Below, in pieces: positions 4,500-62,593 of a stretch of 64,000 bases of DNA (position 1 is the stretch's first letter; each line of letters begins with the position of its first letter). The translations under genes and the position numbers were made by a program. The stretch is taken from the NCBI GenBank assembly GCA_951406725.2, contig OX597823.1:39184001-39248000 (forward strand). Direction: 5' to 3'. Below the pieces are notes generated by a model that was given only the letters and a program-made list of their open reading frames with translations, did no database searches and was not told the origin of the DNA. The stretch comes from Octopus vulgaris (Eukaryota).

Positions 4500-6003
4500 T
4501 AATAGAAATATGTTGCAAAAAGAAAATAGAAACTAAACGTGGAAATGTAAGGGGAAAGTAAGAAAAATCAACGAAAATACACATTGTAAATAAAAACGAA
4601 AAGGCTTTTTATGAAAGGTAACAACAGATACATACAATTAGATGAACTGAGGTAGGAATAAGAGTCATAAAAGTCATTATCATGAGATTATTAAAGAGAT
4701 TCAAGCATACCGCGGTTTCGTAACATACTATTCATTGCTTTGAATGAACACCGGGTAATGAACAGTGTCAGGTCTAATAGTTCCTGAGTAAAAAGATTAT
4801 TTGTAAGGGAGGTAAGTAGTTCTGGATTTTTTGCAGTTAGATTAGATATAGAATTGTAATGTGAATAGTGTAAGGGATGTATGGGGGGGGGGTTAGTGGT
4901 ATTAATTGAAGGGTTAGTAGTGTTCTGTATTATGTTATGTGTTCATATTTAGTTGGGGAAGATATTTATTGATGAAAGTTGCCTCTTTATTCATTCTTTG
5001 TTGCATTGAGGTGTTCTGTGAACATTTATAGAAGGGGAAAATTTGGAAATTAGGATTAAGATTCCTAGCACACCTTTCTATGTGTTCACTAACCTGTAAC
5101 TGTCTGTATTGTGGGTGGCGGATTTGTTCTTTGTGGATAGTGGTTCTTCGACAGAGTGATATTCCTGTTTGTCCAATATAGTTGTTACCACATCCTAAGC
5201 ATGTCATGGCATAGAATAGATTTTCCCAGACACAGGTGAAATTTGAGTTGATCTTAAATATTTCACCTTGTATGAAGTGGAATTCTGAACCCTCCAAAAG
5301 GTGGGGGCATGTTCCACAGTTAGGACGACCACATTTTTTCCCTTTTGACTCTGTTGTTAGTGGATATAGTCTTGCGCTGGTTAATATTTTTTTCAGTGAC
5401 TTCGGTTGCATTTTGCTTTTTATAATTTTGCATGAGCTTAAAATTTCGTTCATTGTTTTGTTTCCTGTGAGGATGGGAAGATTTTGGGTGATAATGTTGA
5501 AGGCTTCATTGTTTCTAGGGTTATGTGTGGAAATGTACGGGAGTATTTGTAAGTCTGGTTTAGTATTTCGGCTGGCTTCCCTTAATATTTGTACATCTAT
5601 TTCCTTAGCTCGTTTAATGCCATCATTTATTAATGAGATTGGGTAATGTCTTTTAATTAGTGTTGATCGAAGTTCGAGTGTTTGTTCACGAGTATATGTA
5701 TCTGAAACTATGGTACAGATTCTTTTCGCTAGATTAAAAGGTATATTAATTTTTATGTGTTTGGGGTGGCAAGAGTTAAATAATAGGTATTGTTTAGAAT
5801 CTGTGGGTTTATAAAAGATGTCTGCTTCTATGTGGTTGTTAACTTTTTTAATTAGGATGTCAAGAAAAGGGAGTTGTTTACTGTTGTGTTCCATGGTGAA
5901 TTGTATGTTGCTATTAATGTGGTTAAGCATTATTTTGAAATCGAGGAGTTTGTCCATGCTGTCTTTCCAAAGTATGAAGCAATCATGCAAATACCTCTTC
6001 CAG
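4500..6003 (-). mobile_element. 5'-truncated Penelope-like retroelement (RT C-terminal part + GIY-YIG endonuclease) with 3' pLTR
   Basis: ORF 4935-6003: WKRYLHDCF (degenerate RYIDD), LPFLDILI, FYKPTD, CGRPNCGTC linker, FYAMTCLGCGNNYIGQTG...RRTTIH...VSEH...E..FI (GIY-YIG). Flanked on both sides by (TA)n. Confidence 0.92.
4700..4744 (-). ncRNA. Minimal type I hammerhead ribozyme motif, A3/U8 core variant
   Basis: Minus strand reads TTCAAAGCA ATGAATA GTA-TGT-TAC GAAA CCGCGG TA TGCTTGAA: stem I, core, 3-bp stem II, GAAA, palindromic stem III and a GUA site. It lies in the Penelope 3' pLTR. Confidence 0.78.
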
Positions 6004-6103
6004 TTATATATATATATATATATATATATACCCCCAACACACACATATGCATGCCCCACCACACACACTTGAACACCATATCAACAAACAGAAATATACT
6101 TAC

Positions 6104-6303
6104 AGGTCCAGTGCAATTGTTGGCACATTGTGGGTGACATTTCTTGCAGATTTTACTGCCAGCATCATAATGTAATGGCACACTGGAACAAGAAGCAATA
6201 CAAGGAGTTGCTTTATGAATATGGTAATTGGCACATTCTAAGCATCGTTCGGGACCAGCACCCCAACATCCATTCTTGCACTGAGGATCACATGTCTTGT
6301 TTT
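6104..6303 (-). CDS. EGFR: EGFR exon (domain IV), 200 bp, phase 1-0
   Basis: cag|AA AAC AAG; CCT|gtaagt. ENKTCDPQCKNGCWGAGPERCLECANYHIHKATPCIASCSSVPLHYDAGSKICKKCHPQCANNCTGP. Confidence 0.95.
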
Positions 6304-7319
6304 CTGAAGAATAAAATTAAAGGGTTTATTTTTTTTTAAATAGAATTTTCTCTTTAAGTTATTTACTGAAAAAATAAAACAAGACAATGAGAAAAAAACC
6401 TACAGCAACAATAATAACACCGATAACAACAATAAGAAAGTAAACAACAACACAAATAACAACAAAAATTTAAATAACTAGGTCTTTGTCTAGCGCTATG
6501 CTGCTGGTAAAAATATTTGTTAATCAAGCATGTACCTTCCTTTAATAGTAGGCTGTTATATAGTGAAAGTCTTGTTAGTTACTATGGTGACAACAGCCTG
6601 CCTGCCTGCATGTCTGTCTGTCTATCGCATGCATGCACACACACACACACACACACACACACACACTCTCTCTCTCTCTTTCTCTCACTATATTTTTCTG
6701 TCAACAGTAACAACCTGTTATTATAGTGAGAGTCTTTTTTTAAAATCTGTGTTGCATTGTTTCTATATTGAACAACATACAGAAACACACACACACACAC
6801 ACAAACAAATAACCAAAATATAACTATCTATATTATTATATTGTGAAAGTCTTTTATCATTTTTGAAGCCTGTGTTGCATTATGTTGACAGACTTGCACA
6901 TAAAATTCTTGCATTTTTTACCAAAACATGTTAGTTACAATCAATGGTGACAACATTACCTGTCTGTATTTCACACAGTCTTTCTATCTCACTGCATTCC
7001 TCTCTTAACAACTTTTTTCTCTTCTCCTTCTTCCCTCCCTTCACATATAGCATGTGGCTGACAGATAGATGGAGATTAGCTTCTTTTTTATAATACAAGA
7101 TTGCAACAATAATAAGAAGCATACTACACAGTGAGGCAGAAAAACCTCCCATATTTTATGAAGCAATCAATGTAAAATTTGGAAGGTTTTTAAGCCACAC
7201 CTTGTAATCACAGTGAATCAATGAGAGAATGTATAATAAGTTGGTTGATTTTCTCTGCAACTTTACAACACGCATTGAGCATGTCTCTAATTCATTCAAC
7301 ATATTACAACATTTATATA

Positions 7320-60667: not shown

Positions 60668-60926
60668 GAACTTAGATAAAAACTTAGATAAACTTAGATA
60701 TGTTTCGACCAAAGATTGGTCCAGGCCATGTCTAACTTAATAGCACCACCTGATAGGATTATTTGAATCCTGTTTAAGTCAAGTTTTGTTTATGGTCCAT
60801 TCAAGTAGTGAGTTCTTGTTGGGTGAGTTGTATCCAATTATGGGTGGCTTATCTGGTATTCTTTGAAGGAATCTATCCAGACTCCGTTTAAAGTTGATGG
60901 GATCCTTTTCCTCTTTGATCTCCCTC
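60668..60926 (-). mobile_element. 3' terminus of a CR1/L2-group LINE
   Basis: REIKEEKDPINFKRSLDRFLQRIPDKPPIIGYNSPNKNSLLEW*, then a short 3' UTR with a GACCAA-TCT-TTGGTC stem-loop and a (TATCTAAGTT)n tail. Confidence 0.75.
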
Positions 60927-62558
60927 GGAGAGAGAGAGAGACAGAGAGAGAAAGGAAAGGAGAGAGAAGAGAGAGATAATGTGATAACTGATATATAAAT
61001 ATCAAAGAATGAATACACAGTAATGAAGAGCTTAATTAATAACAGGTCATTTAACTCTAACTCCTTATTACATTGCAAAAATCTCTGGTTGGAACAAAAA
61101 TACAGAATCAGCTAAAATGATCTTGAAGAGCAACATATTTAGAATCAGAGCAGAAAAGCATGAATTTTGCACAGACATACCACACATACACACATGTATA
61201 GTGTATGCACTTAAATACACACACACACAATGAGAGAGAAAGAAAGAGAGAGAAAGAACGAGAGAGAGAGAGAGAGAGTGAGAGAAGGGGGATGGCAGAG
61301 AGTTTGTTTAGGGACCACTTATCTAATAGAAGACTGAATAAAATTAAACTAGACATGATGGAGAAAAGATTTGAAAAACAATCTAACAAAACAGAAAACA
61401 AAAATAAATATATAACTAAAAGTCCACTGCAAATTGATCCAATGACTGACAACAAAAATGCTATTGTTATCTGGTGATGGTGGTAATGGTGGCGGTCATA
61501 ATGATGGTAAGGATGATGGTGACAACAACAATAATGATGATGATGATGATGGTGGTGGTGATGATGATGGCAGCAGCAGCAACAATAGTGCCGACGACAA
61601 TGATTATAATGACAATGGAAATGATGAAATGATGTTGATGACAATAATGATTATATATATGACTAACAGGAACAAAGTGTTAGTGTCATATATTAACACT
61701 ATGTGACATAATCTGCTGTAATCTGATATTGTCACCTTTCCTTGAATAAGTTCAAGTTTAGGAAATACTATCACTGTTTAGCCCCAGGTTACTTTTCAGC
61801 AAAAATATCTATAATTAAAAACCACTCCAGATCTAACCATCCAGTAAGATTACTTTTCTTGTTTTGTTTTTCAGGCACAAGTGTATCTAGAACTACATTA
61901 TTGAGTGTGTCCTTGTGGATTTTTCTAATTATCATTTTTTGTTTTTATAGTCGTTGGGTGTAAAAGAAGGAGCAGAACTCATGGCTTTTATAGGTCCTCC
62001 AAGATTGGTGAGATTGATGCCATTATTAACCTTCATCAACACCAACAGGGAATGACATGAGCAGGAAGGGGATTCCAGAGGGATGATGGTCTGGGAAAGA
62101 AGGATTGGGTGTAGTGGTTAGTGAGGAGCATGATAGGACTGGATACAACAATGAGAAGATAAAAGAGGGAATCAGGAATGTCTGGGTGGATGTGACATGC
62201 ATCCAACCAATTCAGAGGAGCATAGGCCATTATAGTAGTGGTAGAAAAGGTAAAGAGAAGGAGACAATGCAGTTGTGGGTCAGAGGCTGGCTGGAACATG
62301 TTGGTGACTGATTTAGGCCAGTCAGTTTCTGGATTTAGTAGACCTGTTCCTGATGTAAGAGCAATTACTCTATTGTGGTCCTCACCTAAACTTTATACAG
62401 TCGTACAGTGTCAATTGGTTGCTATATATATATATATATATATATGCATACATACACATATATATATATATACATATATATACATTTTCAAAGTGTAACC
62501 ACATGTGAATCGTTGGCAATTTTCTTCCTCCGACTTCTTTTCTACTGGATTTTGCTCT

Positions 62559-62593
62559 GTTTCTGAAGAAGAGCTTTGCTCAAAATGTTAAAC
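62559..62593 (+). ncRNA. Degenerate hammerhead motif (canonical CUGAAGA, G12A) in a solo pLTR
   Basis: GTTT CTGAAGA A GAGC-TTT-GCTC AAAA TG TT AAAC. Same architecture as the 42112 and 46671 copies. Confidence 0.62.

Follow-up and report, generated by a model that had tools for sequence, protein, structure and literature searches.

Hammerhead ribozymes carried by Penelope-like elements are the closest described relatives of the motifs reported here. Cervera and de la Pena (2014, PMC4209133) described folds with a short stem I, a palindromic 15.1-16.1 stretch and an extra base after A9, many of which are single copies off truncated elements or form opposite-strand pairs, with several families and thousands of motifs per genome and a U3-A8 variant among them. 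The Poseidon element PAc of the green anole (Frangieh et al. 2024, PMC11167929) likewise has a terminal-repeat hammerhead, AT-rich targets and a tail 3' of the motif. Natural core variants are also known, namely A6C (phage Bcep176), U3-A8, U4C and U10.1-U11.1 (Perreault et al. 2011, PMC3088659; Naghdi et al. 2020, PMC7151607), and type I hammerheads occur in retrozymes that lack long terminal repeats (non-LTR retrozymes), abundant animal repeats with a Penelope-like link (Cervera and de la Pena 2020, PMC7229834; Li et al. 2026 preprint) that reach counts of up to 120,000 in the axolotl. We analyzed a 64,000-nucleotide stretch of Octopus vulgaris DNA (contig OX597823.1, positions 39,184,001 to 39,248,000, hereafter the window) in which nine hammerhead motifs belong to eight repeat families. 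These motifs are very probably Penelope terminal hammerheads and are of a known kind, and some of the families are fixed for core variants, A6U and A3-U8, of which we found no description in the literature searched.

The most frequent of the eight families is the A6U family, to which the 42117 and 46671 motifs belong (labels as in Table 1). It accounts for 17 of the 45 family copies found in the non-adjacent part of a blind sample (100 stretches of 10 kb, 16 of which, or 160 kb, flank the window, the other 840 kb being non-adjacent), which extrapolates to about 57,000 copies in the genome. A 26-letter pattern that leaves positions 6 and 7 free gave 16,568 exact matches (8,318 + 8,250) and none in the control, and a tail motif outside the ribozyme gave 11,288. 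Among the 100 pattern matches listed, all from one contig, position 6 is U in 96, A in 2 and C and G in one each, and position 7 takes all four bases. U6 is also found in 57 of 60 copies chosen via the 3' tail alone. In these tail-picked copies a second allele reaches at least 12% at positions 7 and 17 and in just 1 of the 34 remaining motif columns, a CpG, whereas it does so in 29 of the 74 columns in the flanks (p 4.5e-5 by Fisher's test, a guide only, since the columns are not independent). G5, G8, A9, G12-A15.1 and U16.1 are fixed in A6U copies, and G17 occurs in 1 of the 60. A6U is fixed across the family, and conservation follows the hammerhead footprint, the motif being kept while the flanks drift. 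Overlap with coding sequence as the source of this conservation was rejected, because positions 7 and 17 lie 23 nt apart and the spacers differ by non-multiples of three.

The sister group of this family has a 3-nt loop II. It carries A6 in 13 of 13 copies and C4 in 10 of 13, a tree built from flanks only (46 of 85 rows) splits it from the A6U family with support 99/96, and one stem I pair is swapped between the two (C-G in 39 and G-C in 11 of 59). An earlier note on the window had tied its hammerhead reading to covarying stems, and stems I and II do covary. Over 21 real copies of the A6U group and its relatives, 96.5% of 231 cells are paired, compared with 26-38% in slid controls, and 7 of the 11 pairs show two-sided change. 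A hairpin 20-60 nt 3' of the predicted cut is conserved in both the A6U and sister families (42165-42200 in the window; loci L008 and L188) and is a candidate protein-binding or reverse transcription start site. Pairing of the 3' tail with stem II as an off-switch was rejected, as 14 of 16 metagenome motifs lack a matching complement and the tail forms its own hairpin.

The second line of evidence is the 3-8 pair, which changes in a compensated manner. In the 4735 family, for which a first look gave 2,197 candidates, nearly all of the 30 homologues retrieved have A3-U8, and the 13064 family has U3-A8 in 23 of 30 copies; both pairs are family-level states. An exact pattern for the 4735 motif matched only itself, loop II being variable. 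The blind scan also revealed a G3-C8 core at locus L182, whose subfamily is the sister of the 4735 family and whose common forms comprise 13 A3-U8 and 11 G3-C8 among 28 copies. When positions 3 and 8 were left free genome-wide (n=30), this subfamily gave A-U 19 times and G-C 8 times, with U-C, A-C and A-G seen once each, so that the two positions are paired in 27 of 30 copies. A single origin of G3-C8 is not rejected (p-AU 0.26, with 61 rows including one spurious window row), and we therefore count it as one event. Across the families all four Watson-Crick pairs, C-G, U-A, A-U and G-C, are present at 3-8, and the stem III palindromes of the 4735 and L182 group are 6, 8, 9 and 10 nt long. Two further loci carry related cores: a U3-A8 motif of a different family at L056, minus strand, near 1206 from the reverse start, and the 5' half of an A3-U8 core in three tandem repeats at L316 (4154-4240).

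Not every unusual core in the window is of this type. The suggestion that its diverse cores are family chemistries holds for A6U, A3-U8 and U3-A8, and fails for C3A, G8A and G12A, which are minority states in their families and represent decay of single copies. In the 11095 family A3 occurs in 1 of 22 copies and the canonical core in 15; in the 38248 family A8, which sits at a CpG, is seen in only one of the 14 full-length copies; and in the 62563 family G12A, again at a CpG site, is a minority among 19 rows. G12 is present in 25 of 30 copies of the 13064 family and lost in 5, so that, given the frequency of U3-A8 there, the pair belongs to the family and the loss of G12 does not. The 47591 family has the canonical core in 8 of 8 distinct contexts, and 40 of its copies are 98-100% identical. 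In the 38248 family both U4 and C4 are common, judging from 153 shortened copies obtained with a pattern in which G8 was fixed and used for core states only. U4C cores are common in two unrelated families (loci L188, L190, L081 and L222-L251), and C4 masters are undercounted because CpG decay would revert C4 to the canonical core.

Table 1. Hammerhead motifs, coding sequences and related features of the window, with positions numbered from its first nucleotide.
Feature	Position	Strand	Description
4735 motif	4703-4740	-	Minimal hammerhead, intact; A3-U8 core at family level; palindrome of 8 nt in stem III; cut predicted between 4708 and 4707
11095 motif	11090-11135	+	Decayed copy of a canonical-core family; C3A private; CpG-type change in stem III
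Inverted 5' piece beside 13064 motif	12901-13020		
13064 motif	13059-13100	+	Copy of a U3-A8 family with U10.1-U11.1; G12 lost in this copy
38248 motif	38244-38281	+	G8A at CpG site; family retains G8, C4 frequent
42117 motif	42112-42149	+	Intact A6U minimal hammerhead at 3' end of Penelope-like element; predicted cut after 42144
51551-type half motif	46395-46445	-	5' half only, broken off by (TA)n; additional to the earlier note's list
46671 motif	46671-46706	+	Short decayed A6U-family copy; stems II and III mutated
47591 motif	47588-47697	+	Intact canonical core; long stem II; very young family; predicted cut after 47694
Halves	51256-51347	both	Head-to-head junction; two partial 38248-family copies joined within core/stem II
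51619 motif	51551-51623	-	Canonical core, old family; U10.1-U11.1; long stem II, part of its 3' arm missing
62563 motif	62559-62593	+	A6 sister group of A6U family; G12A at CpG site, minority state
Penelope-like open reading frame, 3' part	4938-5930	-	Reverse transcriptase thumb region, linker Cx4Cx2C and GIY-YIG endonuclease, whose match (E 7.8e-4) falls short of the curated cut-off
Penelope-like open reading frame, 5'-truncated, frameshifted	39833-41238	+	Reverse transcriptase, Cx4Cx2C linker, GIY-YIG with CCHH
EGFR-like exon	36305-36826	-	Recep_L_domain E 1.1e-17
EGFR-like exon	22315-22503	-	
EGFR-like exon	20488-20640	-	
EGFR-like exon	15803-16003	-	
EGFR-like exon	5933-6316	-	

All nine motifs and both halves listed in the earlier note are present, a few bases at most from where it placed them, and its readings of the core variants and stem III palindromes were correct. 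Its several families proved to be eight, with every motif assigned to one. Palindromes or near-palindromes of 4, 6, 8, 9 or 10 nt stand at 15.1-16.1 in all eight, taking the place of a stable stem III. The canonical CUGANGA...GAAA...UH core is found in the 47591, 51619 and 11095 families and in part of the 38248 and 62563 families, and is absent at the family level from the A6U and A3-U8 families. An extra base after A9 and a G10.1-C11.1 pair occur together in the A6U, 62563 and 11095 families; the extra base is missing at 4735 and 47591, and positions 10.1-11.1 are U-U in the 13064 and 51619 families and A-U at 38248. In the 42117 motif the extra base is an A, stem II has 4 bp and the palindrome 4 nt. 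Copies are inserted beside (TA)n, with (TA)4 found 121-293 nt 3' of the core in seven of the nine motifs. The junction of the halves at 51256-51347 and the inverted piece at 12901-13020 are fold-back junctions typical for Penelope insertion, the former switching strands within the hammerhead core at a short shared stretch.

The attribution to Penelope-like elements, which the earlier note had made, is borne out by the coding sequences that the motifs follow. Two window copies stand directly behind reverse transcriptase (RT) and GIY-YIG sequence. The 4735 motif lies about 200 nt 3' of one open reading frame (ORF), in an element that terminates in (TA)n at 4466-4501, and the 42117 motif lies about 900 nt behind the other, whose RVT_1 (E 7.8e-7) and GIY-YIG (E 1.5e-3) matches are both just under curated cut-offs. 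The Cx4Cx2C linker and CCHH were read directly in both window ORFs, and a CX2-5CxxC linker with CCHH is a feature of Neptune/Nematis elements (PMC8557442), whose endonuclease is C-terminal; the linker at locus L307 has a different form. An RT preceding the GIY-YIG endonuclease, terminal repeats in both tandem and inverted form and insertion at (TA)n also agree with this type. Across the copies of each family, an endonuclease match lies on the upstream side in 52 of 68 for the 4735 group, in 9 of 34 for the 13064 family, at a distance of about 400 nt, and in 10 of 84 for the A6U family, where some links are to neighboring ORFs of other families. The 47591 family has an Asn-rich 743-aa RT and GIY-YIG ORF about 2.1 kb upstream (L307), with a 3' region of 2.1 kb; many of its copies are 99-100% identical (47588-47880; L307, L308), and the family is probably still active. 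An inverted terminal copy occurs in L307 and L308 and a tandem A6U element in L309. Four families (4735, 13064, A6U and 47591) are in this way Penelope-like, and the other four are likely so.

Relatives of the A6U-element protein give some indication of where U6 came from. There are 713 of them with a top identity of 50-53%, the named ones including proteins from Rhincodon, Stegostoma and Lepisosteus (49%) and Oculina (45%). Eighty metagenome loci encoding relatives share the architecture, and 15 of these have a sense-strand descriptor match, all with A6 (one is doubtful, as it lies inside the ORF). Several metagenome motifs match the Acropora Neptune motif of Cervera Fig. S3 (PMC4209133). With A6 in all 15 and this match in several, U6 is likely the derived state, and the match lends indirect support to a placement in Neptune.

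The number of motifs in the window would not by itself prove the case. A relaxed hammerhead descriptor allowing one core deviation found 11 loci in the window and 4-12 in 10 local dinucleotide shuffles, so the density lies inside the shuffle range and the idea that it exceeds that level does not hold, the strict descriptor giving 4 loci against 0-1. What parts signal from noise is the requirement for a self-complementary 15.1-16.1 stretch. With it, the short stem II descriptor gave 21 matches in the 1 Mb of the blind sample against 0-2 in 5 shuffles, and the long stem II descriptor 36 against 6-8; the window gave 3 matches (4735, 42117 and 47591, the 3 of 9 copies intact by this measure), and 14 of 20 shuffles gave 0. 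Profiles of the eight families, built from real copies, found 45 copies in the 840 kb of non-adjacent DNA (54 per Mb) and none in the reversed control. A further 7 lie in the 160 kb next to the window, and the window itself has 12, of which one is false. These counts support the very large population proposed earlier. The genome-wide rate is about 1 per 19 kb, or roughly 150,000 copies when extrapolated to the 2.8-Gb genome. The one motif per 7 kb originally given for the window is about 3 times the blind-sample rate and is inflated because the families were picked from the window itself. Lunse et al. (2017, cited in PMC6765202) reportedly described about 150,000 small dimer-cleaving hammerhead variants with reduced stem III near Penelope-like elements. 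Our extrapolated figure compares with thousands of motifs in each of the genomes of PMC4209133. Rfam gave no match for the motifs at the gathering score, and a hammerhead is absent among the best 150 of 356 E-value matches. Minimum-energy folds gave a hammerhead dimer for some motifs only and are not used as support. A profile match at 14100-14172 is a GGCT repeat and was rejected, as were, on inspection and for want of a convincing fold, canonical heptamers at 16112, 36497 and 53591 and descriptor matches at 37889 and 62691. The window has 35% GC and is rich in microsatellites.

How these motifs might act is less certain. They have the minimal type I hammerhead fold and sit at the 3' ends of the eight families. 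In the reading that we lean toward, the variant cores (A6U, A3-U8, G3-C8, U3-A8 and U4C) are predicted to be slow ribozymes that would cut only as dimers and with help from the element protein; that the variant cores would cleave at all, in a real but slow manner, seems to us a reasonably good prediction. In a transcript spanning two terminal repeats the paired palindromes would form stem III, two repeats being needed because the 4-nt palindrome of a single copy cannot close it. The RT-endonuclease protein may aid folding, and cleavage after position 17 would release or mature a unit RNA. Reverse transcription, mostly on uncut RNA, would begin where (TA)n is nicked, within the tail that follows the motif on its 3' side, and would usually stop early to leave short copies like those in the window. 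Inserted copies would then decay mainly at CpG, and such CpG-led decay would account for C3A, G8A and G12A. A dimer requirement and low activity are known for minimal hammerheads (PMC4209133), as are protein-assisted cutting and partial C3G/G8C rescue in the anole element (PMC11167929). A stronger version, in which the A6U core is a working natural hammerhead that is activated by dimerization together with its own protein or Mn2+ and has taken over from the canonical core in this genome's most successful Penelope family, is a possibility we put forward only tentatively.

Several observations weigh against slow, protein-assisted cleavage. The anole element inserts in vitro without a need for cutting, and RNA ends at its cut were not seen (PMC11167929). 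Changes at position 6 are costly where they have been measured: A6C cleaves at <0.1 per min (PMC3088659), one such change lowered activity >10,000-fold in Mg2+ relative to Mn2+ in one context (PMC7151607), and CUGA-turn mutants are low in activity with the exception of a G-C swap (PMC9901934). Reading by eye about 41 distinct TA-adjacent loci among 100 listed of 871 overlapping matches, we saw that 5' ends do not pile up where the cut is predicted; of the roughly 41 ends, about 4 fit position +1, a comparison biased by TA microhomology. Additionally, 6 of the 9 window copies are damaged, the 21-copy covariation alignment was hand-picked and its rows are related, and the switch to G3-C8 may come from a single event. 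For the 11095, 38248, 51619 and 62563 families no ORF was found (0 of 22, 50, 29 and 19 copies, with most loci reaching only 1.5 kb upstream).

The alternative that survives best, although we consider it unlikely, is that the variant families have lost catalysis and keep the hammerhead shape as the place where the RT-endonuclease binds or is positioned, or where the RNA dimerizes. The weakness of position 6 mutants in tested ribozymes, the missing truncation pile-up among the ends listed and the dispensability of cutting in vitro all fit such a loss, as does the rise of the A6U family to the most frequent of the eight despite U6. It is harder to reconcile with the fixation of G5, G8, A9, G12-A15.1 and U16.1 next to free variation at 7 and 17, with the avoidance of G17, or with the compensation of the 3-8 pair, which is a feature of the active conformation (PMC3884650). 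A protein that recognizes the active fold could, however, produce the same conservation pattern.

Much less probable is that the variant cores are dead ribozymes riding on successful master copies, with recent amplification taken for conservation. Each variant may indeed go back to one founding change, and several window variants are plain decay. This explanation is largely refuted by the concentration of subfamily differences in flank rather than motif columns and by the compensated stem I pair between the sister families.

We give still less weight to the proposal that the short copies are non-autonomous, retrozyme-like elements, a type suggested in the earlier note, and are spread by small circular RNAs. 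In its favor, many copies are <300 nt, and four families are without a linked ORF in our sample and may be non-autonomous. Retrozymes are, however, tandem monomers of 150-450 bp without an ORF (PMC7229834), whereas here we see dispersed truncated ends. None of the motifs falls within a tandem array in the window, the other four families are ORF-linked with two window copies following RT/endonuclease sequence, and the motifs are of the minimal rather than the retrozyme type (PMC7229834). Shared 5' extents are staggered in all families, from tens to >1,000 nt in most and only to 157 nt in the 62563 group. The copies look like 5'-truncated Penelope ends and not like retrozymes. Finally, chance matches of a loose descriptor in AT-rich DNA, as the relaxed scan and the blank Rfam result might suggest, are refuted by the fit of the majority forms of all families to the fold, by the blind-sample excess of the short stem II descriptor over its shuffles, by the many A6U pattern matches against none in the control, by the pairing kept at 3-8 and by covariation, and have next to no probability left.

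Returning to slow cleavage by the variant cores, it is useful to see what separates these families from published systems. Minimal hammerheads, the extra A, U3-A8, U4C, A6C and U10.1-U11.1 are already in print (PMC4209133, PMC3088659). U6, A3-U8, G3-C8 and C4 are absent from those Fig. S3 representatives of PMC4209133 that we compared, where no cephalopod is listed. The known variants of PMC3088659 and PMC7151607 resemble ours in having a natural position 6 change with low activity and in tolerating U-U at 10.1-11.1 and U4C, but they are rare single sequences with tertiary contacts, whereas the motif described here is of the dimer type and has U6 in tens of thousands of its copies. The PAc core is canonical, with G3-C8 present only as a laboratory rescue, and its motif overlaps the ORF start (PMC11167929), unlike the A6U motif with its lack of a start codon and its frame-breaking spacers. 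Among the publications listed in our searches we found no natural A6U, U6 heptamer, A3-U8/G3-C8 or cephalopod hammerhead, though Lunse 2017, Przybilski and Hammann 2007 or supplements may list such cores; a single 'A6U' occurs in one listed paper on twister, and the term is absent from the passages of PMC11014351 searched.

The hammerhead is universal in Penelope-like elements, although on its own it is weak and insertion in vitro proceeds without its cutting. Short RNAs allow a direct test of its role here, since families that changed a nearly invariant core base have reached tens of thousands of copies and have sister families whose core is normal. Cutting by U6 or A3-U8 would mean that hammerhead searches rely on too narrow a consensus; a lack of cutting would mean that a catalytic fold, though conserved, has turned into a non-catalytic element. 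Should the A6U core work, this genome, with all four 3-8 pairs fixed, would amount to a mutational scan made by nature that gives the hammerhead core a new definition in vivo, and tens of thousands of ribozymes per genome would have been missed by standard searches.

The remaining features of the window concern its setting. An EGFR-like receptor tyrosine kinase gene spans 5933-36826 on the minus strand, with long, repeat-filled introns; apart from the exon with the Recep_L_domain match, its exons are presumably EGFR-like, judged by likeness. The earlier description of all motifs as lying in one gene locus is borne out only in part: 11095 and 13064 are intronic because the exons span this interval, and the other seven lie outside the exons found. 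A 166-nt near-perfect inverted repeat within (TA)n at 48439-48604 resembles a miniature inverted-repeat transposable element or another fold-back end and scores weakly to a microRNA model on both strands. A non-LTR retrotransposon ORF fragment with a Cys-rich PHD-like domain lies at 57942-58889 (plus strand), with a second repeat ORF at 58834-59463. A very abundant repeat resembling a short interspersed element, partly in 227-nt tandem units and with no hammerhead found in it, occupies 29262-29844, and further copies lie near 2241-2378, 12717-12846, 28066-30014 and 32065-32329.

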